Assembly: GCA_965204175.1 (NCBI GenBank)
Contig: OZ241978.1
Location: 3,814,164-3,878,163, forward strand
Direction of reading: 5' to 3'
Length of the DNA stretch: 64,000 nt
Origin: Vicinamibacterales bacterium
Lineage (GTDB): Bacteria > Acidobacteriota > Vicinamibacteria > Vicinamibacterales > UBA8438
A program made the translations under genes and the position numbers. Numbering within the stretch: position 1 is the first letter of the stretch; each line of letters starts with the position of its first letter. Positions 12,732 through 63,067 of this stretch are shown in pieces. Below the pieces are notes generated by a model that was given only the letters and a program-made list of their open reading frames with translations, did not search any database and was not told where the DNA came from.

Positions 12732-12954
12732 GTCGTGCCCCCTGCGCCGCTCCGGTCAGGTTCTTTGCGGGAACGCCTCCGCGGTTGCCCCCTCTGTTTC
12801 AGTGTACACGTCGCAACGAAGGGCGCGGTTCCGAAGCAGCGAGCGGACGAAGCCCTTGACCGGTGGCTACCGGAAGCTACGTTGAGTGCGTATGCGATCC
12901 GTCGGCTTGAAGGTGCTCGACCGAAGCCGAAGCGACCGGTGATGGAACGGATCC

Positions 12955-13311
12955 TCACACGCCGATCATGCGCGACCGCAGCATCGACTGCACGAACCGC
13001 GCCAGCCGTTCCTCGGCCGGCTCGACGCGCTCGCCGAACTCTTGCCGCAGCCGTTCGGAGATCTCCGTCAGCGGCGTCTCGCCGTCGCACGCCTTCCAGA
13101 TGAAGGTTCCGACGTCGTCGAGGCGGATCCGGTAGAACGAGTCGCCCAGCTTCGAGGCGAGCCAGCGGCCGATGCGCCCCTCGCCGAACTTCGGACGCAA
13201 GACGACGCAACGCCTGTCGTCCAGATCGCGCCAGTCCAGGAGGCGGCGAGGGCAGGCGTTCCAGAAGGCGACGGCACCCTCGGACGCGTGCGGTCGAGCG
13301 CCCGGGCTCAC
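12955..13311 (-). CDS. PqqD-family (RRE-like) small protein
   Basis: YRIRLDDVGTFIWKACDGETPLTEISERLRQEFGERVEPAEERLARFVQSMLRSRMIGV matches the PqqD-family pattern. The GTG start overlaps the OPT stop (GTGA). Confidence 0.65.
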   Translation of the reverse strand: MSPGARPHASEGAVAFWNACPRRLLDWRDLDDRRCVVLRPKFGEGRIGRWLASKLGDSFYRIRLDDVGTFIWKACDGETPLTEISERLRQEFGERVEPAEERLARFVQSMLRSRMIGV

Positions 13312-15349: not shown

Positions 15350-16291
15350 ATGAGCACCCTCTCCGCCGGGTCCGCCCCGGTATACTCCGGTGCCGTGAGG
15401 CGCATCCCCGACATCTATGCCGAGAAGCGCGCCGCCGGCCTGCCGGTCATCTCCATCGAGTTCTTTCCGCCCAAGACGCCGCGGGGGGACGAGAGCCTGT
15501 TCGAGCGGGTGCTGCCCCGCCTCGCCGAAGCCCGACCCGACTTCTGCTCGGTAACGTACGGCGCAGGCGGCGGCGGCACGCGCGAGAAGACGCTGCAAAT
15601 CGTCGATCGCATGCAGCGGGAACACGGCCTGACCGCGATGGCGCACGTCACCTGCGTCAGCTTCACCCGCGCCGAGATGGACGGTTTTCTCGACGAGGCG
15701 GCCGGGCTCGGCATCGAGAACATCCTGGCCCTGCGCGGCGATCCGCCGCCGGGGGAACCGGACTTTCGGCGGCCTGCCGGCGGCTTCGACTACGCCTACC
15801 AGCTCATCGACGTCCTGAAGGCGCGGTCGAACGAGTTCGCCATCGGCTGCGCCGGCTTTCCCGAGGGTCATCCAGACTGCGAGGAGGGAAGGCACGTCGA
15901 CTGGCAACGGTTGCGCGACAAGGTCGACCATGGCGCCGAGTTCATCCTCACCCAGCTCTTCTTCGACAACGCCGATTATTTTCGGATGATCGACTACCTG
16001 ACCGGCACGCTCGGCGTGACCGTGCCGATCACCCCCGGCGTCCTGCCGATTCTGAGCACGAAGCAGGTGAAGCGTTTCACCGCGCTGTGCGGCGCCACGC
16101 TGCCTCCCGCGCTGGTCGCCGATCTCGATCGGCTCGGGGACGACGACGAGGCGGTGACCAGGTTCGGCATCGACTTCGCCTCGCGGCAGTGCGAAGCGCT
16201 GCTCGCGGGGGGCGCGCCCGGCCTGCACCTCTATGGTCTGAACCGGTCACGGTCGGCCCTGGCGATACTCCGCAACCTGAAACTCGCGTAG
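15350..16291 (+). CDS. metF: Methylenetetrahydrofolate reductase
   Basis: ISIEFFPPKTPRGDE..., VTYGAGGGTREKT, HVTCV, LALRGDPP and GFPEGHP motifs are typical of MetF. Start uncertain (15320, 15350 or a downstream GTG). Confidence 0.85.
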   Translation: MSTLSAGSAPVYSGAVRRIPDIYAEKRAAGLPVISIEFFPPKTPRGDESLFERVLPRLAEARPDFCSVTYGAGGGGTREKTLQIVDRMQREHGLTAMAHVTCVSFTRAEMDGFLDEAAGLGIENILALRGDPPPGEPDFRRPAGGFDYAYQLIDVLKARSNEFAIGCAGFPEGHPDCEEGRHVDWQRLRDKVDHGAEFILTQLFFDNADYFRMIDYLTGTLGVTVPITPGVLPILSTKQVKRFTALCGATLPPALVADLDRLGDDDEAVTRFGIDFASRQCEALLAGGAPGLHLYGLNRSRSALAILRNLKLA

Positions 16292-16452
16292 GCGCGAACT
16301 CGGCAGGACGTCGGCGCTGGCCAGGGCTGCTCAGTCCCGTTTCGGGGTCCCATGCATCAACGCCCGGAGGAGGTGGTGCTGCGCCTGTTCGATGGAATCG
16401 ACACGGCCGGTCAACCATGCGATCTGCGGCGGACCGCCTGTATGCTGTGTGC

Positions 16453-53490: not shown

Positions 53491-53692
53491 TCCGTGGGCC
53501 GACCGTCCCGTCCGAGTGCTGCATCCTCCACTCCCGCGGCAGGTACTCCTTCACTGCCCGCCACGCATCCCATGAGAGGTCCCGCGCCAGATACGTCACA
53601 CCGAAGCCTCCGGACCCCAGCACGCACTCGATCTCAAGCTCGTCCAGGCGCATTCCGCTCGGCAGCTCCTCACCCTCACCCGCATCCGCCAT
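53491..53692 (-). pseudogene. 5' fragment (about 67 codons) of a second Hanks-type Ser/Thr kinase gene, truncated at the outer IS21 right end
   Basis: MADAGEGEELPSGMRLDELEIECVLGSGGFGVTYLARDLSWDAWRAVKEYLPREW..DGTVGP parallels residues 1-73 of the kinase at 53772-56390. Similarity stops at about 53490, where IS sequence begins. Confidence 0.75.
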
Positions 53693-53771: not shown

Positions 53772-56390
53772 TCAGTTCCGCGTGCTCACGGTTATCGTGT
53801 AAGTTCCGCCGCTACCTTCTCCGACAATATCAGGATCACCATCAAGATCCCTCGCCTCGATTAGATACCTTCCCGACACGGGGAGCCTCTCAAATAGGGC
53901 GCCGCCGAAAGACTGATTGATACTACGGCCTTCTGGCGACTTCAGCTCATAGGTCATTGCAATATCATCAGAAAATTCCACAAAAACTCTTTGTCCTGCA
54001 GTACCCTCGAAAGTCCAGACCTCGACTCCCGGCCCATCGATTCCACGGACGGGCGTGTCGAATGCGAGAGGGCGTGCAGCGCGCACAACTATCGTGTAGT
54101 CACCTCGGGGTCGTTCGTCCCAATCAATATCGACGACGTACCGTCCCGACAACGGTAGCGTCTCCACGATTGGGAGAATGGGAAACCCGTAAGCCAGGTA
54201 CCTTTCAGTCGGCGAGTGCAGGTGGAGTCGCGGGAAAAGGGAATCGCCGCCAACAACACTCACACTGATTGTTTGTCCCGCAGAACCTTCGAAAGTCCAA
54301 CCGTCTGTGCCTGGTCCACCGCGGGATGGCACGTTCAGAGCAAGGGATCCCCTCTCTGTCGTGCGGTTTGTCGTGCGGTCTGTCGTGCGGTCTGTCGTGC
54401 GCACGACGACTTCGTAGCTGCCTCCGACGGAGAGATTGTCCCCCGCAATGACGAAATAACGGCCAGACACGGGTAGTACTAGCTCAGAAGGCAATGCGGA
54501 ATAGTCGGGTGAAAGTAGGCCGCCGCCCTCCACGGTGATCGCTTGCCCTGCGACGCCCTCGAAAAACCAAACGTGTAGCGGCTCGCCGGGATTCCACCTG
54601 CCTCGCGATGGCGTACCCAAGGTGAGCGACGACATCGATCTCTCCTGGAACACAACCAAGCCGAACTCACTCGAATCGCTGCTCAATGCCCGCACGCTGA
54701 ACAGATATTGTCCAGATGCTGGCAAAGTTTGCCTCGTTTCCAGTACCCTATCCTGAGCGATGACTTCACCAACCGGCGACATTACTTGAATCGCGACGTT
54801 TTCGCCTCCCCCGCCCAGGAGCACGCTCTGTCCTGCCGTACCTTCAAAGGATCGGAGCACAGTAGCGGGCGCATCACCACCCACCGTGCCAGAGTTGGGT
54901 GGATCAGAGGGGGCCACGTTGGGCACAATGGGAGTAACGTTGCGTCCAAGGTCCCGGCGGAGCGCCGCTTCGCTCTCGCCGGTCAGATAGCCCGTTGCGG
55001 TGACGCTTTGCGCCGCCTGCCATTCCCGCAGCACCGCCCGCGTACCGGGTCCAAACATTCCGTCCAGTGGGCCGACGTCAAACCCGGCCGCCACCAGGGC
55101 CGCCTGAAGCAAACGCCGCTCGTTGCGGTCCAGTCCCAGCGCCTCCTCCTCCTCCTCCTCCGCAGCCGGCGAGAGTGCCTCCCGTGTCGGAGGCCGCTCG
55201 ACTACCGCTGCTTCTCTGTCGCTTTCCGGATCCGGCTCACGGACGGATCCACCACCCTCACCGTCGTCGATTCGATCGGCGTCGACCGCAACCGGCTCGC
55301 CACCTCCACTCGGCAGTGCCGTCTCGCCAGCCGAGGCTGTTTCCACCCGACCGCCTCGTTCTTCCAGAACCGCCCCATTCCGAGAACTCAGGGTCATGGC
55401 CAGCACCACGCCGACAATTCCGACGGCCGCCGCGCCGGCCAGCCACCACTGCCACGGCGACGCCGACGTTTCTCCTCGGGAAGAACCGCCTGGTTCGAGG
55501 GGCTTCCCCAAGATCGGACCCGGAGGGGCGTCCAGCAACCGCTGCCACGCCTCCAGATCCTGCGGGCGATCCTCCTGGTACACTGCCATCGCCGCGCCGA
55601 CCGCCGTCGCCAAACCGGAACTCACCTTCTGCGGCGCCACCTCCACCAGTGGCCGCAGCCGGTCTTCCTGGGTCCGCTCCGTAGCCGCTTTCGGCACCCC
55701 ACCGCTCAACGCGCAATAGGCCAGAGCCCCCAGGGCATAGATGTCCGTCCACGGTCCCTGACGATCGCCCGGCGGATACTGCTCAATCGGTGCGTATCCC
55801 GGCGTCAACACCGACGCCAGTGTGCCCGACTGCCCCCCCATCGCATGACGCGCCGCCCCGAAGTCAATCAGAACCGGCGAGCCATCTCGGCGCACCACCA
55901 CATTCGCTGGTTTGATGTCCCGATGCAGCAGTTCCGCCGCGTGAACCTCCTTCAGCCCCTCCGTCAACGCGTCCAGCACCTCCCGTACCCGATCCTCCGA
56001 GAGCGCACCCGCCGCCTCCACCTGCGACGCCAGCGTCCGCCCCTCCACGTATTCCATCACCATGTAGGCGGTTCCTAGCGCCTCGAACACTCGATGCACC
56101 TGCACGATGTGCGGGTGCTTGAAACGCGCCAGAATACGCGCCTCCTCCAGAAACCGCTCCAGGCCCCATTGATAGTCCTCGGCGTTGCCGCCCGTCCACG
56201 GACCTACCGTCCCGTCCTGCCGCCGAGTTCCCCACTCCCGCGGCAAGTACTCCTTCACCGCCCGCCACGTCTCCAGCGACAGATCCCGCGCCAGATACGT
56301 GATCCCGAAACCGCCCGAACCCAGCACCCGCTCGATCTCGAGCTCGTGCAGCCGCGTCCCCGGAGCCAGAGCGTCACCTGCGTTCGTCAT
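53772..56390 (-). CDS. Hanks-type Ser/Thr protein kinase, TM, peptidoglycan-binding domain and four PPC-like (pre-peptidase C-terminal-like) repeats
   Basis: Kinase motifs LGSGGFGITYLARD, AVKEY, HRDIKPANVV, DFGAAR and GYAPIEQ. TM WWLAGAAAVGIVGVVLAM. PG_binding_1-like LLQAALVAAGFDVGPLDGMFGPGTRAVLREWQ. Four repeats follow the pattern (W/S)FEG(T/S/V)AGQ...LP(A/V/L)SG(Q/R)Y...Y.(I/V)(V/T)V. AAGGAG SD upstream. Confidence 0.85.
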   Translation of the reverse strand: MTNAGDALAPGTRLHELEIERVLGSGGFGITYLARDLSLETWRAVKEYLPREWGTRRQDGTVGPWTGGNAEDYQWGLERFLEEARILARFKHPHIVQVHRVFEALGTAYMVMEYVEGRTLASQVEAAGALSEDRVREVLDALTEGLKEVHAAELLHRDIKPANVVVRRDGSPVLIDFGAARHAMGGQSGTLASVLTPGYAPIEQYPPGDRQGPWTDIYALGALAYCALSGGVPKAATERTQEDRLRPLVEVAPQKVSSGLATAVGAAMAVYQEDRPQDLEAWQRLLDAPPGPILGKPLEPGGSSRGETSASPWQWWLAGAAAVGIVGVVLAMTLSSRNGAVLEERGGRVETASAGETALPSGGGEPVAVDADRIDDGEGGGSVREPDPESDREAAVVERPPTREALSPAAEEEEEEALGLDRNERRLLQAALVAAGFDVGPLDGMFGPGTRAVLREWQAAQSVTATGYLTGESEAALRRDLGRNVTPIVPNVAPSDPPNSGTVGGDAPATVLRSFEGTAGQSVLLGGGGENVAIQVMSPVGEVIAQDRVLETRQTLPASGQYLFSVRALSSDSSEFGLVVFQERSMSSLTLGTPSRGRWNPGEPLHVWFFEGVAGQAITVEGGGLLSPDYSALPSELVLPVSGRYFVIAGDNLSVGGSYEVVVRTTDRTTDRTTNRTTERGSLALNVPSRGGPGTDGWTFEGSAGQTISVSVVGGDSLFPRLHLHSPTERYLAYGFPILPIVETLPLSGRYVVDIDWDERPRGDYTIVVRAARPLAFDTPVRGIDGPGVEVWTFEGTAGQRVFVEFSDDIAMTYELKSPEGRSINQSFGGALFERLPVSGRYLIEARDLDGDPDIVGEGSGGTYTITVSTRN
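54357..54404 (-). repeat. 12-nt tandem repeat (tgtcgtgcggtc x about 4) encoding TDRT/TNRT/TERG units between PPC repeats 2 and 3
   Basis: Read directly: tgtcgtgcggtt tgtcgtgcggtc tgtcgtgcggtc tgtcgtgcgcac. The protein reads RTTDRTTDRTTNRTTERG. Confidence 0.85.
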
Positions 56391-56406: not shown

Positions 56407-56838
56407 CTACTGCCGCCGCCGGGGTTCCTTCTGGATCAACTCTCCCGTCTCAGGAATCCGCTCCAGACCCTGGGCCAAATCCAGCACGTCTTCCCCAGCC
56501 GGCGGCGAGCCGGCATCGCCGTGACTCGCGTTGCCGTCGCCCGAGGGAGACGCAACATCGTGCGGACACCGCGCATCGAGCTGATCGACGCGCATCTCGT
56601 AGTCGCCGAAGCGGATGTGATCGGTCGGCTCGACCAATTGCTGACGGATCGCCCGCCAAGCGCCGCTGTTCAGCACGAACGTCCCGTTCGTCGTCGCGCA
56701 GTCGGTAACGTGCAGACGCCCGGCGGAAACCCGTACGACTTCCGCGTGCCGCCGGGACACGCTCGAATCGTCCAGCCGCACGTCGCACGATCTCTCTCGA
56801 CCCACGGTGTACGTTCTCACTCTCGACATCTCGTCCAC
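56407..56838 (-). CDS. Small FHA domain protein
   Basis: YTVGRERSCDVRLDDSSVSRRHAEVVRV..LHVTDCATTNGTFVL...IRFGDYEMRV is an FHA core. Start at 56838 (GTG) or 56829 (ATG). Confidence 0.85.
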   Translation of the reverse strand: MDEMSRVRTYTVGRERSCDVRLDDSSVSRRHAEVVRVSAGRLHVTDCATTNGTFVLNSGAWRAIRQQLVEPTDHIRFGDYEMRVDQLDARCPHDVASPSGDGNASHGDAGSPPAGEDVLDLAQGLERIPETGELIQKEPRRRQ

Positions 56839-56847
56839 CCTGGCCGC

Positions 56848-57708
56848 TTACAGGAGCGACAGCAGCAGGTTCACGGTGATGGAACCGCTGCTATCGCGCA
56901 CCAGCTGGCCGCGGCCGGCCGACGCCACGCGCTCCAGAAAGGAATCGGTCCGGGACAGACCGCGACCATTGTTCACCAGGACGGTAGACACCCGGCCATC
57001 CCCCGCTGCCGAAAACGACGCCGCTTCCGAGACAGCTTGCTCTACTTCCTCCCGATAGGCCGGGTTGTCGGTGATCAACACGATCACTCGCTGCTCCGCC
57101 GTCGAACGCCAGCTCATGCGGGTGGCTTCCCGCAATCCGAGAAGGAACGCCTCCGCCGCATCGGGATTTCCACCGCCACCCCTCCCTATGCGGATACTCA
57201 ATCCGTTGACGAAGCGCCGCAACGCGTCCTGTGCGCCGCCAGAATCGTTGATCTCCCGCAGATCGAAACTGGTAACGGGTCTGTCGTAGTCTCGATCGCC
57301 GAACGCCACCACCCCCACGCCCAAGCTTGGAGTCAAGCCGACCAGGAGCCGGCTCAACTGGTCGACCTCGGCCTTGAGACCGGCAATCTGCTCGCCCATG
57401 CTGCCGGTCACGTCGAGCGCGATGACCAGGTCCAGATGCGGAAAGCTCGCCGCGGGAGGGGCGGGAGGCGCCGGCGGACAGGGCGGGCAGGGCTCAGCTG
57501 GCGGGCAGGGCTCGGCCGGCGGGCAGGGCAAGACCGGCGGACACTCCGGTGGATCCGGCGCCGCCATGACCACGACCGGACTGCGGGCGGTGTTCGGAAA
57601 GTAGGGAAAGATGACGATCGCAATCAGGATGAACGCGCCGAGCGCCGACGCGAACAGGTCCAGCGCCGACATGCTGAAGATACTGATCTCGCGGTTTCGC
57701 TTCTTCAT
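56848..57708 (-). CDS. Membrane-anchored vWA domain protein with an ExbD/TolR-like N-terminal anchor and a Cys/Pro-rich linker
   Basis: MKKRNREISIFSMSALDLFASALGAFILIAIVIF is a basic N-terminus with an EI(S/N)I-like motif and a TM containing Asp. The linker is PECPPVLPCPPAEPCPPAEPCPPCPPAPPAPP. vWA MIDAS DLVIALDVTGSMG and a later VIVLITDNPA. Confidence 0.8.
   Translation of the reverse strand: MKKRNREISIFSMSALDLFASALGAFILIAIVIFPYFPNTARSPVVVMAAPDPPECPPVLPCPPAEPCPPAEPCPPCPPAPPAPPAASFPHLDLVIALDVTGSMGEQIAGLKAEVDQLSRLLVGLTPSLGVGVVAFGDRDYDRPVTSFDLREINDSGGAQDALRRFVNGLSIRIGRGGGGNPDAAEAFLLGLREATRMSWRSTAEQRVIVLITDNPAYREEVEQAVSEAASFSAAGDGRVSTVLVNNGRGLSRTDSFLERVASAGRGQLVRDSSGSITVNLLLSLL
57482..57535 (-). 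repeat. 18-nt tandem repeat (ggcgggcagggctcRgcY x3, with degenerate flanking copies) encoding the (A/V)(E/L)PCPP units
   Basis: Read directly at 57482-57499, 57500-57517 and 57518-57535. Confidence 0.85.
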
Positions 57709-57734: not shown

Positions 57735-59027
57735 TCAGGGCCGGACGGATTGCACCGCCAGCACCGGCAGGTCGCCGAGTTGGACGTCGTCGCCCGGAGC
57801 AATCGTCCGCGGCTTGAACGGTTCGAGCGCTACACCGTTGACGCGCGTGCCGTTGCTGGAATTTAGATCCTCGATGTAGAAGCGGCGACGTTCGCGCGTC
57901 ACGCGGGCGTGCCGACGGGAGATGGTGGGGTGGCCAACGACACTGTCCACGAGCGGCGCGTGGCTGCCGACCACGAACCCGCCGGCGCCCCGACCCAAGC
58001 CGGTGTCGCGTACCAGGATCTGCGGCGCCCCTTCGGCAGCCAGCACCAGCACCGGAGCGGCCGCGGAGTTAACTACCCTCGGCCCTGTAGCTGCACGACG
58101 GCGACCGGCCGGCCGACCCATATGGTGGCGGATGCTGGTCGACATCTTCTCCACGATCCGCACCACCTCCCGCCGCGGCTTGCGCAACGCCAGCAGCAGC
58201 GCCGGCAGCGCCACGGTACCGACGCCAACCGCCAGCCACAGCGCCCGGTTCGCGGCCGAGACGGCCGCGGCCGTCTCATCACCGAACGCACCCGCGGCAT
58301 CGGCTGCGGCTGCAGCAGCAGCGGCAGCCCGCGCCGCATCGTCATCACAAGGTGCATCCGTCGTATCGAGGCTGATGTCATCGAATCTGTCCAGCTCACG
58401 TACCGCCTCGGTGATGCGGGAAGCCATGAACATTCCCTGCGCCGACAGGAACCCCGCGGTGTTCACGCCGATGACGACGCCGCAGTCGTTGATCAGCGGC
58501 CCGCCGCTGTTGCCGGGATTGATGTCGGCGCTGTGTTGAATGATGTCCAGCTGCCGGCCGGCGCGTCCGTCCCAGGAGTTCGTGTGCAGACGCCCGATGA
58601 CGCCCTCGGTCGACGTCACATCGTCCGCCGGGCTGATCTGGTCGGCCACGCCCGGATACCCCAACGCCCATACCCTCTCGCGGGTCCGCAACTCCATCGT
58701 GCCGAGCGTGACCGGCGGCAGCGTCAGGCCGTCCACCTCCAGCACCGCCAAGTCCAGCGCCTCGGACGACCACGCGACCCGCGCACGCCGCCTTCCGCCG
58801 GTATGCGCCGATGCGACCTCAAACGTCGTCTGGCCGTCCACGACGTGCTGGTTGGTGAGTACCCACCCGGGCGCGACCACCGATCCGCTACCGGTGCCGC
58901 TGTCGCCGACGACCCGGACGACGCTCCGTTCCACGGCGTCGAGCGCCGTGGCGGGTTGGGCGACAGCCCACCCGCATGTCCAGGACAACGAGCATGCAAC
59001 GGTCGATGCAATCGCAACGCTTCGCAT
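57735..59027 (-). CDS. Trypsin-like serine protease (catalytic triad present), TM, C-terminal FHA domain
   Basis: Signal peptide MRSVAIASTVACSLSWTCGWAVAQ. Catalytic motifs: His in VLTNQHVV, Asp in LDLAVLEV, Ser in NPGNSGGPLIN. TM ALWLAVGVGTVALPALLLAL. FHA VVGHPTISRRHARVTRERRRFYIEDLNSSNGTRVNG. GAGGAAGGGG SD upstream. Confidence 0.85.
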   Translation of the reverse strand: MRSVAIASTVACSLSWTCGWAVAQPATALDAVERSVVRVVGDSGTGSGSVVAPGWVLTNQHVVDGQTTFEVASAHTGGRRRARVAWSSEALDLAVLEVDGLTLPPVTLGTMELRTRERVWALGYPGVADQISPADDVTSTEGVIGRLHTNSWDGRAGRQLDIIQHSADINPGNSGGPLINDCGVVIGVNTAGFLSAQGMFMASRITEAVRELDRFDDISLDTTDAPCDDDAARAAAAAAAAADAAGAFGDETAAAVSAANRALWLAVGVGTVALPALLLALRKPRREVVRIVEKMSTSIRHHMGRPAGRRRAATGPRVVNSAAAPVLVLAAEGAPQILVRDTGLGRGAGGFVVGSHAPLVDSVVGHPTISRRHARVTRERRRFYIEDLNSSNGTRVNGVALEPFKPRTIAPGDDVQLGDLPVLAVQSVRP

Positions 59028-59060
59028 GAACCCCTTCCTCTTCGGACTCTGCGGCGAACG

Positions 59061-60506
59061 TCAAACGTTGTCGCCGAGGCGGCCTGCTTCCGTAGCGTCG
59101 AGCGTCACGGTGAGCGTCAGGTCGCCCACCCGCAGCACGCCGCCGTGGCACAACGCGACGGCGGCGCCCGGCGTCAGACGAACGTCGTCGAGCGTCGTCC
59201 CATTCGTTGAATGCAGATCCTCTATGAACACTGCACTCTCGCGGGCAGACAGGCGGAAGTGTCGGCGGGACACCGCGGTATGGTCGAGTACCAAGGCGCT
59301 CTGGAACGGATTGCGCCCGACCACGGCGCCACCCGCGTCCGCGATGGCGCTGCCCGGGACGCGCACCGCGATCGGGTGACCTTCCGCATCGGCACCGTTG
59401 AGAAAGACCGACGGGACGGCGCTCGCCAGACGGTCCTGCGCAGCTCGATCGGCAAGATCCTCTTGCGCGGCTTGTGCCAGGGTCTCCGCCGTTACCTGCT
59501 CCTGCCGCGCCTTCGCAACCGAGCGCCGAGCGGCCAACCAGAACAGCATCCCGGCCGTTGCTACTCCAGCCGCACCCAGACCTGCCCACCGGAGGTACCG
59601 CGCCCTGTCCGCTGCCGCCCGCTCCTGCGCCTCGGCAGACTCTTCCTCCGCCAACCGTCGCGCTTCGACCGCCTCGGCGGCATCGACCTGCGCCGCCTCG
59701 GCTGTCGACTCGGCCTGTTCCCGCAGATCGGCCTCGGCGTCGGCCGCCGCTTCGGCCCGGCGTCGCCTTTCCGCCTCCGCCGCGGCGCGTCGCTCCGCAT
59801 CGGCGGCCGCCGCTTCGGCCACCGCAGCCCGCTCCGCATCGGACAGACAGGGCCTGTCAGCGGTGGTCGCTGCCAAGCCAACCGCGCTGAAGCGCGCGAG
59901 CAGCCACACCCCTGGCACGGCGCGATCGCTGCCGGAGGACGCCAGGTTCGGGTCGCGGTCGTCGACCACGACACCGATGATCTCGCCGCAGATATTGAGC
60001 AACGGCGCACCGAAGTTGCGCTGCCAGTCGTTGAACGCGTCGTGCCGAACGAACCCTGGATCGGATGTCGCTGCGCCAACCTCGACGGCTAGCACACGGC
60101 CGGGCACCAGCGCTATGGTCCCTGATCTCGCGTCGCGCGTGGCGGCATGGACTTCCTGCGGCTCCTGTGCCGAGACGCTTGCGAAGGGGTACGGAGGCGC
60201 GGGCAGGCCCGGTACAGCCAGCAACCCGAGACCCAGCCTCTCGTCGGCGGCCACGAGGCGTCCCTCATGCTCGGTTCCACCGACGTCGGTCACCACGAGG
60301 TTGGCGATGTCGGCGTCGATGCTCGTGATGACCTGCGCCTCGCCGGCGACGAAGCCGAGCCCCACGAGCGCGTCTGTCGTCCCCGCCGCATTCGCAGCGC
60401 GCACGACGACCACGCCGGCCACCGACGGCGTCTGCGCAGCCACCGGAGCCACGACCACACTGCCGGCCACCCACACGAGTAGGCCGGCCCGCAACATCGT
60501 CACCAT
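59061..60506 (-). CDS. Degenerate trypsin-like domain (triad apparently lost), Ala/Glu/Arg coiled-coil, TM, C-terminal FHA domain
   Basis: Signal peptide MLRAGLLVWVAGSVVVAPVAAQ. The protease-fold remnant has RNFGAPLLNICGEIIGVV in place of GNSGGPL, and no His or Asp at the aligned positions. Coiled coil AERAAVAEAAAADAERRAAAEAERRRRAEAAADAEADLREQAE.... TM WAGLGAAGVATAGMLFWLAA. FHA VVGRNP...VSRRHFRLSARESAVFIEDLHSTNGTTLDD. Start at 60506 (GGAGG SD) or 60608. Confidence 0.8.
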   Translation of the reverse strand: MVTMLRAGLLVWVAGSVVVAPVAAQTPSVAGVVVVRAANAAGTTDALVGLGFVAGEAQVITSIDADIANLVVTDVGGTEHEGRLVAADERLGLGLLAVPGLPAPPYPFASVSAQEPQEVHAATRDARSGTIALVPGRVLAVEVGAATSDPGFVRHDAFNDWQRNFGAPLLNICGEIIGVVVDDRDPNLASSGSDRAVPGVWLLARFSAVGLAATTADRPCLSDAERAAVAEAAAADAERRAAAEAERRRRAEAAADAEADLREQAESTAEAAQVDAAEAVEARRLAEEESAEAQERAAADRARYLRWAGLGAAGVATAGMLFWLAARRSVAKARQEQVTAETLAQAAQEDLADRAAQDRLASAVPSVFLNGADAEGHPIAVRVPGSAIADAGGAVVGRNPFQSALVLDHTAVSRRHFRLSARESAVFIEDLHSTNGTTLDDVRLTPGAAVALCHGGVLRVGDLTLTVTLDATEAGRLGDNV

Positions 60507-60611
60507 CCACCCTACCTCCGTGCTACAGGTAGTCTTCCGAGAGTTTCCGACGCCTCCTTGCTTGCCGTCCCAGGCACCCTGCGCTACGGAAGTCTCGTGC
60601 GTCACCACCTC

Positions 60612-61469
60612 CTATCGGGCGATTCGCCGCGTCGGCGCCGTGAGCCGTTCAAATCGGCGCCGTACGGCAGCCAGTGCAAGGTGTCGATAGACGATGACGC
60701 TGGCGTTGTCCTGCGACGGCCTGTCCGCCGCTGCTACGGCCTGCAAGAGACGCAACACCATCGCTTCAGCCGACCGCTGCCCGCTGCACAGGCACCGGAT
60801 CTGCTCCTGCGCAACGGTTTCGAGGCCGTCGCTTGCCAGCACGATCCGATCGCCGATTCCGAGCCGGACCGAGGCGCCATCGTCTACCAGCGCCAAGCCC
60901 TCGCCAGTCAGCGCGGACTGCAACTGGTGCGCCGCTCCCCCCCTTGCCTCCTCCGGCGTCATGCGACCAAGCCGTACCTGATTCTCCAGAACGGGCCGCA
61001 TCGAATGGTCCGCGTTCAGGCGGTCGATCCCGGCGTCTTCTCCGTCCACCCCTCCACGTACGCGCCACAGCGGTGAATCGCCCACGCTGATCCACTGCGC
61101 TGTCCCGTCGTCGGTCACGACGCACCCCACCAGGGTGCAGCCCATGCCTGCGTAGCGCGCATCGTCAGCCCCGCAGCGCCCGACCTCCGCATTGGCCACG
61201 TCAAGCGATGCGCGTAGCCGCGCGGTGATGCCGCCGCTCGCTTCCCGAAAGGTGTCGACGAAGGTCGACACGGCCAACTGGCTCGCTCGGGCGCCCCCCC
61301 GGTGCCCGCCCATGCCATCGGCCAGCACCAGCAGCAGATCGCAGCCGTCCGGGTCCGGGTCCCGGAATCCGATAGTCCAATAGTCGTCCTCCTGATAGTC
61401 ACGGGCGCCGGCAATCTGGCCGGCCGCGAGCAAGTGGTCGAAGCCCTGCAGCCCAACGGAATTCCGCAC
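60612..61469 (-). CDS. PP2C-family Ser/Thr protein phosphatase
   Basis: ARDYQEDDY, LLVLADGMGGHRGG, GCTLVG, ISVGDSPLW and VLASDGL motifs. The GTG start lies 1 nt after the upstream FHA gene's stop. Confidence 0.9.
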   Translation of the reverse strand: MRNSVGLQGFDHLLAAGQIAGARDYQEDDYWTIGFRDPDPDGCDLLLVLADGMGGHRGGARASQLAVSTFVDTFREASGGITARLRASLDVANAEVGRCGADDARYAGMGCTLVGCVVTDDGTAQWISVGDSPLWRVRGGVDGEDAGIDRLNADHSMRPVLENQVRLGRMTPEEARGGAAHQLQSALTGEGLALVDDGASVRLGIGDRIVLASDGLETVAQEQIRCLCSGQRSAEAMVLRLLQAVAAADRPSQDNASVIVYRHLALAAVRRRFERLTAPTRRIAR

Positions 61470-61470
61470 G

Positions 61471-62184
61471 TCAGTCCCCGTTCGATTCGTCTTCCCACGA
61501 GAAACCGGCGCCGCACAGCGGTACGAACCGGAGCACGGTGTTTCCCATCTGCACGTGCGTCAACGGCTCGATCTCGCGCGACTCCAACACCGGCTCGTCG
61601 CTGACGTAGGTGAGGTTCGTCCCGTCGCCGCTCTGGACGTAGAACTTCCGTCCGCGCGGTTCGTACGTGATCTTGCAGTGATTGGTCCGGGAGATCATTC
61701 GGTCGCCGTAGTCGAGCGACACCCGTTGCGTTCGGTCCCGGCCGATGGAGTTGATGCCAATCCCTAGCGTCGCAACATGACCCTTGCCCGGGCCCTCGAT
61801 GATCGTCAGCCAGCCGACCGGCGGATCGGCCATCGGATCGTCTTCGACCCGCACAGTGCGGGCCGCCGCCCCGGCGTCATCACCGCTACCTGCACCTTGT
61901 TGTCGATTGCCGTGGAATACCTCGGTGTGCCCTGAGTCCCGGCCTGGCGGATCCTGAACCCGCTTCTCGGTCGGGGCTCCGAAACGCCCGGCATCCCGGG
62001 GGGAGGTGCGTGGTGCGGTCGGGACGCCCTCGCGAACCCCGGTGGGCCTGGCGATGTCCGCCGTACGCCGGTTTGACCAACTCCCGCGCCCGCCGCCACC
62101 CACCTGATCGGTGGGTTCGGACCGCTCAACGAGCTCCGTGCTCTCGTCGATGATGTTGCCGTCCGCATTCCGCTCTAACGGCAT
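61471..62184 (-). CDS. FHA domain protein with a disordered Gly/Arg/Pro-rich N-terminal half
   Basis: GWLTIIEGPGKGHVATLGIGINSIGRDRTQRVSLDYGDRMISRTNHCKITYEPRGRKFYVQSGDGTNLTYVSDEPV is an FHA core. Start at MPLERN (62184) behind a GGGAGG SD. Confidence 0.8.
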   Translation of the reverse strand: MPLERNADGNIIDESTELVERSEPTDQVGGGGRGSWSNRRTADIARPTGVREGVPTAPRTSPRDAGRFGAPTEKRVQDPPGRDSGHTEVFHGNRQQGAGSGDDAGAAARTVRVEDDPMADPPVGWLTIIEGPGKGHVATLGIGINSIGRDRTQRVSLDYGDRMISRTNHCKITYEPRGRKFYVQSGDGTNLTYVSDEPVLESREIEPLTHVQMGNTVLRFVPLCGAGFSWEDESNGD

Positions 62185-62275
62185 GCCGTTCCTCCCTAGT
62201 GCGCGCGAACTCCTTACGCCGAAACCCCACCGCGCGCACGCGCCCTTCAGACCGGCTGCTCCCTGCACGGCGAGC

Positions 62276-63067
62276 CTATGTGGGCCGTTCGTAGAGGCGA
62301 TTGACGAGGTTCCTCAGGCAGTACAGCCCCACCCGGTTGAGCGCGCCCTCCTCGCGGCCCTGCACCACGTGCATCGCAAACATGAGCACCGCCGCCTGCA
62401 GCAGGGCGAGCAGCGTCGTATAGAACGCGACGCCGAGCTTGCCCGTCAGGCTCGTCATCAGTTCCGGCCCCAGCTCCGCCAGGTTCGCGTTCGGATCGAT
62501 GCCCGCGAACAGCTGGCCCGCGTCTCGCAGCGCGAACGCAATGCCAACGACCGTGCCGATGAAACCGAGCGTCGGAATCAGCCACACCAGGTACCGGAGC
62601 AGGTTGTAGCGCAGCTCTGTCTCGTGGTGGTAGAGCTCCATCGACGAGTTGAACATCGCGTTGACCTGGTCGACGGACCCGCTGCTCTGGAACTGGAGCA
62701 TGGCACCCGTCAACAGGCGCTGCAGCCAGTACTGCTCCTCCGCAGCCGATTGGCGCACGCGGCGGTAATAGGGGGCGATGTCCTCCTGGCGCAGGACGGT
62801 CTTGTCGTCTTCGGGAAGCAGACTTAGTCGGAGCTGATCTTCCTCCCTGTCCCCCACCCGATGGCGGACCAGCAACTCGCCCGCCGCCACGAAGAACACG
62901 ATCCACATCACGTTCTGGATCGTGAACGGATAGGTGAAGAGCTCTGTGTTCCGATCCAGGAGCAGATCGGCTGCATCGCTCTCGGCGGGCACCAGCAGCG
63001 ATAGAAGCCCTACCCAGACGAAACCGGCTACGAACGAACCGGTCAGCGTGACGACCGGCATGGGCAT
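62276..63067 (-). CDS. MotA/TolQ/ExbB-family proton-channel protein (4-TM MotA-like topology)
   Basis: LVWLIPTLGFIGTVVGIAFAL and LGVAFYTTLLALLQAAVLMFAMH correspond to the conserved C-terminal helix pair of MotA/ExbB/TolQ. There are two N-terminal TMs and a long cytoplasmic loop. ATG at 63067 behind a GGAGA SD; the ORF extends to 63115. Confidence 0.8.
   Translation of the reverse strand: MPMPVVTLTGSFVAGFVWVGLLSLLVPAESDAADLLLDRNTELFTYPFTIQNVMWIVFFVAAGELLVRHRVGDREEDQLRLSLLPEDDKTVLRQEDIAPYYRRVRQSAAEEQYWLQRLLTGAMLQFQSSGSVDQVNAMFNSSMELYHHETELRYNLLRYLVWLIPTLGFIGTVVGIAFALRDAGQLFAGIDPNANLAELGPELMTSLTGKLGVAFYTTLLALLQAAVLMFAMHVVQGREEGALNRVGLYCLRNLVNRLYERPT

Follow-up and report, generated by a model that had tools for sequence, protein, structure and literature searches.

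An HtrA-like pseudoprotease with a cytoplasmic FHA domain as a predicted constant member of a kinase, PP2C and MotA-like operon in Vicinamibacterales

A 64,000-nucleotide (nt) stretch of the genome of a Vicinamibacterales bacterium (OZ241978.1; the window, to which all coordinates below refer unless a locus is named) encodes two adjacent membrane proteins that each join an HtrA-like (S1C) ectodomain to a single transmembrane (TM) helix and an FHA domain. The downstream protein has the catalytic residues of an active S1C protease, and in the upstream protein all of them are replaced. Judged from sequence, the pseudoprotease is a constant core member of an operon that also encodes a Hanks-type Ser/Thr kinase, a PP2C-type phosphatase and a MotA-like protein, and the active S1 protease is an interchangeable effector. 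The operon is widespread, and no description of it was found in the literature searched.

Structure and conservation of the two FHA-tailed proteins

Both proteins comprise a signal peptide, an S1C/HtrA-like domain, a helical stalk, one TM helix and a cytoplasmic FHA domain. In the pseudoprotease these are the signal peptide (residues 1–24), a degenerate S1C domain (~28–215), a stalk rich in Ala, Glu and Arg (~220–304), the TM helix (~305–325) and the FHA domain (~365–470); in the active protein the signal peptide is followed by the protease domain (~34–215), a short stalk, the TM helix (263–281) and the FHA domain (~325–427). Direct BLASTP comparison of the two proteins detects the similarity of the FHA domains (38% identity) and gives a marginal alignment of the protease domains. 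Comparison of one family profile with the other yields an E value of 4.9e-45 across 436 columns; the two families are therefore homologous along their whole length. The end-to-end profile homology, together with Pfam and topology prediction, bears out a sequence-only reading of this DNA, which had described two adjacent paralogues with this shared layout.

The N-termini of both proteins are signal-peptide-like and end in A-x-A. The TM helix of the active protein is preceded by one Lys or Arg and followed by six within 15 residues, and the Gly/Ala-rich TM helix of the pseudoprotease is followed by RRSVAKAR. Each ectodomain family has two invariant Cys residues, C173 and C220 in the pseudoprotease and C182 and C227 in the active protein, of which one lies 8 residues past the nucleophile or pseudonucleophile and the other where the stalk helix makes its first turn. 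The pair fits a periplasmic disulfide that would staple the stalk to the active-site strand. The charge bias around the TM helix and the invariant Cys pair indicate that the ectodomains are periplasmic and the FHA domains cytoplasmic; topology prediction places them in the same compartments, as had been proposed. A fragment of RpoC has 94% identity to a Vicinamibacterales MAG, 88-91% to other Acidobacteriota and 73% to an Armatimonadota MAG. The host is thus a diderm acidobacterium, and the term periplasm is applicable.

The stalk is ~85 residues long in the pseudoprotease (220–305; model helix 223–294), as compared with ~33 in the active protein; the Ala/Glu/Arg-rich segment described earlier is thus present, but at ~85 residues and not at the ~110 first estimated. 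Among pseudoprotease homologues, stalk length ranges from ~60 to more than 200 residues, and some homologues (P0033, P0034, P0036 and P0037) carry PG_binding_1, the copy in P0034 lying, together with a Pro-rich repeat, within the periplasmic stalk. Neither protein has a Pfam match to PDZ, the hallmark domain of classical HtrA, DegP and DegS, and the NCBIfam HtrA/DegP/DegS scores of both are far under the cutoffs.

The likely start of the pseudoprotease is the ATG at 60506, which is preceded by GGAGG at a distance of 8 nt and fits the N-termini of homologous proteins; an alternative GTG at 60608 has a spacer of only 2 nt. Pfam assigns Trypsin_2 (33.9 bits; gathering score 27.6) and FHA (1.2e-13). 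The AlphaFold model has a mean predicted local distance difference test score (pLDDT) of 82, and its Foldseek matches include MarP, DegS, DegP, HtrA1 and the S1C domain found in the ectodomain of RsgI9 (7sjy), with E values of 3e-11 to 1e-8, from which we conclude that the fold is kept. The register of the triad was taken from a gap-free HMMER alignment to MarP (Rv3671c) and from the way in which the strands of the two AlphaFold models line up. The positions of the catalytic His, Asp and Ser are occupied by Asp64, Gly92 and Phe165 (in TSIDAD, LGLGLL and RNFGAP; codons verified), and the oxyanion-hole Gly (G172 in the active protein) is Arg163. MAFFT and hhalign put the His column at Q58, a shift of six residues to a position at which some homologues do have His; this register was dropped for that of D64, and neither register puts a His at the catalytic site of the pseudoprotease. 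His155, Cys173 and the G166-x-P168-L-x-N171 motif are retained. With its fold kept and the His, Asp, Ser and oxyanion Gly lost, the upstream protein is predicted to be a true pseudoenzyme.

The active protein matches Trypsin_2 (1.5e-26), Trypsin (3.6e-14) and FHA (4.8e-17) in Pfam, and its AlphaFold model has a mean pLDDT of 81.6. Its best-matching PDB sequences include HhoA, Deg1, MucD, AlgW, DegQ and HTRA1 (E ~1e-16 to 1e-12), with which TNQ-H61-VV, L-D92-LAV and GN-S174-GGP are in register, and the H61/D92/S174 triad is invariant in 41/41 relatives. The downstream protein is, by prediction, a catalytically competent HtrA-like endopeptidase. Both proteins thus score above the gathering threshold of Trypsin_2, and the triad with its GxSGG loop is present in the downstream protein and absent from the upstream one. 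The sequence-only reading had likewise found the triad kept downstream and wholly replaced upstream, and alignment to S1C proteases and structure prediction confirmed its assignments and located no intact triad in the upstream protein. It had also called an FHA domain on an extracytoplasmic protease unusual. This did not hold: a search with the active protein among word-limited candidates gave 2286 matches, and Trypsin_2 and FHA occur together in nearly all of the 120 that were listed. A survey of 2008 listed just an FHA-FHA-trypsin protein (PMC2605481), and no experimental work on the Trypsin-TM-FHA family was found in the literature searched.

The pseudoprotease is not a solitary variant. 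A word-indexed search returned 48 relatives, and a profile searched against 1.84 billion representatives matched 370 clusters at 50% identity (E<=1e-30). In 42 aligned relatives, His is found at position 64 in none, Gly at position 92 in 41 and Ser at position 165 in none, and H155, G166, P168, N171 and C173 are invariant and D88 nearly so. The PLLNxC anchor is present in 105 of the top 150 representatives; in most of these 105, Tyr, Phe, Ala, Leu or Val fills the pseudonucleophile site, which is Ser in two, neither of which has TNxH. In a maximum-likelihood tree of the ectodomains, one branch with 100/100 support separates the pseudoprotease and active families, and the same subclades recur in both halves (L002, L106 and L108 together; L003 and L085 together). 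This single split and the mirrored subclades indicate that the duplication is older than the spread of the operon and that the two genes have largely travelled together. Family size, constraint and the tree rule out a recent duplicate in decay, and the dead copy is, as far as its relatives reveal, a member of an old, large and constrained family.

The FHA domains differ in their predicted ability to read phospho-Thr. The canonical binding residues (G-R, S-x-x-H and N-G-T) are invariant in 42/42 members of the pseudoprotease family, and the active protease of the window has only part of this set. The Arg of the GR motif, which in canonical FHA domains contacts the phosphate, is Ser, Thr or Cys in this protein and its closest relatives and is retained in distant members of the active family. 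Because of the Arg to Ser355 replacement, the active protease may be a poor reader of phospho-Thr.

The operon and its variable effector slot

The two genes lie within a group of eight minus-strand genes that run in the same direction with short gaps between 53.7 and 63.1 kb of the window, according to the open reading frame (ORF) list and Pfam. The 6.76-Mb genome has one copy of the operon. We compared 13 pseudoprotease loci: the window, four loci from metagenome assemblies and species-representative genome regions of the same class. Of the ten species-representative regions, one duplicates the contig of L002, and two contain no more than an isolated match. The gene order that recurs is (small FHA), MotA-like, FHA, PP2C, pseudoprotease, a protein with an ExbD-like anchor, and one or more kinases. 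The PP2C gene precedes that of the pseudoprotease in 13/13 loci, and the anchored protein is encoded directly after it in 10, with a 4-nt overlap in L002.

The identity and location of the effector protease vary around this core. An active S1-TM-FHA protein is present in 7/13 loci, a fraction from a small sample that was drawn via the pseudoprotease and is uninformative on how frequently active Trypsin-TM-FHA proteins occur without it; L084 is one such case. The S1 protease gene lies between those of the pseudoprotease and the anchored protein in the window, L003 and L085 and leads the operon in L106, L108, L109 and L111. In L001, L101 and L102, the slot is filled by another protease-type ectodomain, and in L105, L107 and L110, no effector protease was found within +/-10 kb. 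The FHA-tailed protein of L001 has a thermolysin domain (Peptidase_M4_C, Pfam E 4e-33). In L101 and L102, which are from congeners of the window genome, the gene right after the pseudoprotease encodes a protein composed of an HExxH ectodomain, a coiled coil, a TM helix and an FHA domain, and its TM and juxtamembrane motif (LLLxLRKPRREVVR) is near-identical to that of the active protease of the window. At the level of its motif, this ectodomain is a zincin-like, putative metalloprotease. The slot is best described as one for a predicted periplasmic protease on a conserved TM-FHA anchor, for which S1 is one option among several. An additional gene in L101 (4173-7034, minus strand) lies between the effector protease and the kinase and vWA genes and encodes a 953-residue protein with a TM helix, a coiled coil and ~12 TPR repeats.

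This variability makes an obligate hetero-oligomer of S1 and pseudo-S1 subunits unlikely and favors the pseudoprotease as a core subunit in its own right. The sequence-only reading had put forward a heterodimer of the two proteins; as an obligate pairing, this is not supported, given relatives in which the partner has been swapped, is relocated or is not seen, and the pseudoprotease is constant.

The features of the window operon and of the related loci are collected in Table 1. Several observations concern its surroundings. Copies of IS21 lie just beyond the kinase end of the operon. A truncated second kinase gene (53495-53674, minus strand), directly downstream of the operon kinase, stops at the IS21 element and has 73% identity to the first ~60 residues of that kinase. 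Approximately 600-2000 nt past the right end of the window, an ORF of 463 residues (equivalent to 64594-65985, minus strand), the N terminus of which presumably resembles a group II intron reverse transcriptase/maturase, adds to the mobile elements near the operon. Stretches at 56407-56450 and 62150-62200 of the window (both minus strand), L085:6190-6242 and L101:2259-2300 may be docking peptides.

Table 1. Genes and features of the operon in the window and of related loci
Feature	Position	Strand	Evidence or details
MotA/ExbB/TolQ-like proton-channel protein (operon gene 1 here)	62276..63067	-	Pfam MotA_ExbB 32.6 bits (cutoff 22.9)
Soluble FHA protein, 265 residues	61471..62268	-	Pfam; position kept in relatives
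PP2C-type Ser/Thr phosphatase	60612..61469	-	Pfam and NCBIfam
Pseudoprotease-TM-FHA (upstream protein), 481 residues	59061..60506	-	ORF, Pfam, AlphaFold, Foldseek
Pseudoprotease, degenerate chymotrypsin-fold domain	59862..60425	-	D64 (60315-60317), G92 (60231-60233), F165 (60012-60014)
Pseudoprotease, FHA domain	59097..59414	-	G397-R398, S413, H416, N435 present
Predicted active S1C protease-TM-FHA (downstream protein), 430 residues	57735..59027	-	ORF, Pfam, PDB sequence matches, AlphaFold
Active protein, S1C domain	58383..58928	-	H61 (58845-58847), D92 (58752-58754), S174 in GNSGGP (58506-58508); Cys pair C182/C227
Active protein, FHA domain	57747..58055	-	S370, H373, N392 kept; GR-motif Arg is Ser355 (57963-57965)
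N-in/C-out membrane protein: Asp-bearing TM anchor, Cys/Pro stalk, periplasmic vWA	56848..57708	-	Pfam VWA and topology
Conserved N-terminal TM anchor, window	57570-57708	-
Conserved N-terminal TM anchor, L085	L085:11256-11400
Conserved N-terminal TM anchor, L003	L003:12839-12970
Small soluble FHA protein, 143 residues	56407..56838	-	Pfam
Hanks-type Ser/Thr kinase: TM helix, periplasmic PG_binding_1 and C-terminal repeats	53772..56390	-	Pfam and topology
HExxH ectodomain-TM-FHA protein, L101	L101:7092-8579	-	motif MAHEV(G/A)HH...E(L)(E/D)ADFY
HExxH ectodomain-TM-FHA protein, L102	L102:6939-8300	-	motif as for L101
Retroelement template repeat, L001	L001:14521-14643
Retroelement variable repeats, L001	L001:1478-1600, 16190-16312, possibly 12833-12955

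The motor-like pair, the kinase sensors and the distribution of the operon

The MotA-like protein has 50-74% identity across the related loci. The anchor of the vWA protein (first ~45 residues, MKKRNREISIFSMSALDLFASALGAFILIAIV...), which contains an Asp in the TM segment, is conserved at 65-82% identity. The periplasmic part behind it is a non-vWA domain in L003 and L085 and elsewhere has only ~35% identity. In the window protein, KKRNRE precedes the TM helix, which is followed by the Cys/Pro stalk and the vWA domain, and only ~15 N-terminal residues are predicted to be cytoplasmic. The vWA domain is thus predicted to be periplasmic, and the cytoplasmic vWA tails that had been suggested as interaction partners of the FHA domains are not supported. 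The MotA-like protein and the protein with the Asp-bearing anchor look like a stator pair of the ExbB-ExbD/TolR type. The anchored partner has no Pfam match to an ExbD or MotB domain, and its likeness to ExbD is in the TM segment alone.

The sensors of the kinases also differ among loci and include PG_binding with repeats, FGE-sulfatase, Sel1 and ankyrin types. In L001, a reverse transcriptase (RVT_1) and bAvd adjoin the homologous operon, and the differences between a 123-nt template repeat and the 3' ends of two kinase genes fall almost exclusively at adenines of the template. Such adenine-specific differences between template and variable repeats are the signature of a diversity-generating retroelement (DGR). 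The variable repeats correspond to the C-terminal FGE-sulfatase ends of the two flanking Ser/Thr kinases.

A survey of genomes of the class by the pseudoprotease ectodomain alone gave a match in 14/401 genomes (~3%), the window's own being counted, and, among the genomes listed for the genus, in only a minority. A scan of a genome collection with the pseudoprotease alignment was swamped by generic FHA matches and returned no orthologue. The patchy distribution and the adjoining insertion sequence (IS) elements suggest a conflict or envelope-surveillance system.

Possible mechanisms and relation to known systems

We tentatively favor a layered mechanism, possible although somewhat short of probable, in which phosphorylation of Thr by the kinase drives co-recruitment of the pseudoprotease, as an adaptor, and the effector protease through their FHA tails. 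The receptor kinase would bind an extracytoplasmic ligand by its variable sensor and phosphorylate Thr on the cytoplasmic face of the membrane, and PP2C would remove these marks and reset the system. The pseudoprotease and the effector protease would dock on phospho-Thr by way of their FHA tails, and in the plane of the membrane a long-stalked, peptide-binding head that does not cut would be brought beside a short-stalked head that does. The pseudoprotease would hold or position the substrate, as an adaptor or co-receptor and not as the mirror partner of an S1 domain, and the protease would then cut its periplasmic target. More speculatively, the MotA-like/ExbD-like pair may supply energy to the complex or serve as its target, the two FHA proteins that span the membrane once may act on the motor as a third subunit similar to TolA, TonB or GltG, and the system may serve in conflict and defense or in envelope surveillance. 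Co-recruitment by phospho-Thr through the FHA tails is in itself plausible. Control through the FHA domains, as proposed by the sequence-only reading, is a reasonable inference from the shared kinase/PP2C/FHA operon; an obligate dimer of dead and live subunits is unlikely.

Several results weigh against the layered mechanism. A conserved Thr was sought in the linker of the pseudoprotease, and none was found. The live protease of the clade that includes the window may read phospho-Thr poorly, as the loss of the GR-motif Arg suggests, and its recruitment may be by other contacts. The HExxH ectodomain of L101 and L102 has no Pfam, NCBIfam or PDB match. The 3/13 loci with no effector protease within +/-10 kb indicate that proteolysis may not be the universal output. 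PADLOC identified no known defense system in the operon; its matches were to generic kinase and trypsin domains, and the vWA, PP2C, FHA, MotA-like and pseudoprotease proteins were unmatched.

Among the alternatives, the one that survives best is that signals pass from the outside in, a view that we regard as doubtful but worth serious consideration. The dead S1 domain, held by its stalk near the peptidoglycan or outer membrane, would sense peptides, cell-wall fragments or misfolded envelope proteins, a relay via the TM helix to the FHA domain would modulate the kinase and PP2C, and the active protease would be one of several outputs. The S1C domain of RsgI9, an anti-sigma factor, is regarded as a sensor without catalytic residues, and its presence among the Foldseek matches is consistent with such a role. 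So are the conservation of the substrate-binding loop motif despite the loss of catalysis, the long stalk of variable length, the PG_binding_1 domain of some homologues and the position of the pseudoprotease as the most constant of the membrane proteins that the operon encodes. However, the operon already has receptor kinases with dedicated and highly variable sensors, and FHA domains, which read phosphorylation, are not known as emitters of signals.

It is unlikely that the two chymotrypsin-fold domains form an obligate hetero-oligomer similar to the HtrA trimer, in which the dead subunit would activate or inhibit the live one and the FHA tails would control assembly. The genes are adjacent with short gaps in the window, L003 and L085, both families have the Cys pair, the His (155 or 165) and the PLLNxCG loop, the subclades of the tree are mirrored, and MamO and MamE are a precedent for a pseudo/active pair of HtrA proteins (PMC4794232). 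Against this, the pseudoprotease is kept where the partner slot holds a non-S1 ectodomain (three loci), where the partner is at the far end of the operon (four loci) and where no partner is seen (three loci), and the stalks, which differ by ~50 residues, would place the two heads at different heights.

A housekeeping function is compatible with the other readings but is similarly improbable as an explanation of the operon. It would be an envelope-remodeling or quality-control module under Ser/Thr kinase control, with a DegS/DegP-like protease and a chaperone-like dead paralogue. HtrA proteases are classical envelope quality-control enzymes, motors of the MotA/ExbD type serve Tol-Pal envelope maintenance, and the kinase and some pseudoprotease stalks carry PG_binding_1. 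The patchy occurrence, confined to ~3% of the genomes surveyed in the class and to a minority of those in the genus, the IS elements beside the operon, the swapping of effector and sensor domains and the DGR hypermutation of the kinase sensors of a relative are difficult to reconcile with such a role. That the upstream protein is still a hydrolase with non-canonical residues, such as His155 with Cys173 or Asp88, is very improbable: chymotrypsin-fold cysteine proteases exist, and H155, C173 and N171 are invariant and D88 nearly so, but the His and Cys are no less invariant in the active family (H165 and C182), in which C182 pairs in conservation with C227 as fits a structural disulfide, Cys173 sits 8 residues beyond the nucleophile site, that site is filled by varied hydrophobic or aromatic residues, and the oxyanion Gly is lost.

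The ectodomains of both proteins have their best sequence and fold matches in MarP and in DegS, DegP and HtrA1, which are likewise membrane-anchored or periplasmic. MarP depends on a disulfide. Unlike these proteases, the proteins described here have no PDZ domain, a type I topology in which a C-terminal TM helix leads to a cytoplasmic FHA domain, and, in the upstream protein, no triad. The closest parallel for the pair is MamE/MamO, in which a membrane-associated pseudoprotease of the HtrA fold is encoded with an active protease of the same fold and is needed alongside it (PMC4794232). The match of the upstream protein to MamO in NCBIfam is weak (E 1.2e-6, 27.2 bits; cutoff 800) and does not place it in that family. 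The operon has no TauE domain, PDZ domain, c-type heme motifs or magnetosome genes, and both proteins are FHA-tailed and encoded in a kinase/PP2C/MotA operon.

The signaling components resemble the threonine phosphorylation pathway of the type VI secretion system (PpkA, PppA and Fha1/TagH), which likewise combines FHA readers and a PP2C phosphatase with a TM Hanks kinase whose sensor is periplasmic. TagH scores of 27-35 bits are well under the cutoff of 120, the FHA domains here are fused to periplasmic proteases or pseudoproteases, and no structural genes of the secretion system were found in the window operon or the related loci examined. In ArnA/ArnB, an FHA and vWA pair of Sulfolobus that is regulated by kinase and phosphatase, and in the TerY-P triad, FHA or vWA proteins are similarly combined with a Hanks kinase and a phosphatase, and ArnA is among the PDB matches of the FHA domains. 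In contrast to both, the vWA domain here is extracytoplasmic, and the vWA and PP2C proteins are without a PADLOC match, so that no TerY-P triad is recognized.

The MotA/ExbB-family protein, the small protein with an Asp-bearing TM anchor and the long-stalked single-pass proteins recall the Tol, Ton and Agl-Glt motors. In GltG, which spans the membrane once, the FHA domain adjoins the TM helix, and docking on the TolQ/MotA-type motor AglR5QS is predicted (PMC11761067). As compared with TolA, TonB and GltG, the orientation here is reversed, with N-terminal periplasmic heads and C-terminal FHA domains, and the C-terminal domain of TonB or TolA is absent.

DGR-associated and nucleoside triphosphate-dependent conflict systems of multicellular bacteria have in common with these loci the hypermutated FGE-sulfatase/C-type-lectin sensors, trypsin-like effectors, inactive enzyme domains, vWA and patchiness (PMC7159879, PMC10907252). 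The loci described here have no MoxR, STAND, GTPase or effector-associated adaptor domains. The MotA-FHA-PP2C-pseudoprotease core is not described in either paper: MotA is absent from both, and FHA is absent from one and has three passing mentions in the other. A more ambitious and, in our judgment, unlikely reading is that of an undescribed immune-like machine spanning the envelope. Kinase sensors that are swappable and, in some relatives, DGR-hypermutated would detect an external agent, and phospho-Thr would recruit the FHA proteins to a motor of the MotA/ExbD type, much as TolA, TonB or GltG join theirs. A periplasmic protease would be driven or unleashed, with the pseudoprotease as its substrate-holding arm, and the envelope would be remodeled or collapsed.

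Pairs of an enzyme and a pseudoenzyme are a recurring regulatory design. In the present pair, conservation is stronger in the dead member than in the live one, and the phospho-Thr reader of the dead member is intact. The operon joins Hanks kinase/PP2C/FHA signaling, a MotA/ExbB-type motor and periplasmic proteolysis, three well-studied modules that, to our knowledge, have not been known to work together. If the proposed recruitment is correct, this would be a bacterial case of cytoplasmic phosphorylation organizing proteolysis across a membrane, and the operon would become a testable candidate conflict system of a new kind, in which the receptor kinases are hypervariable.

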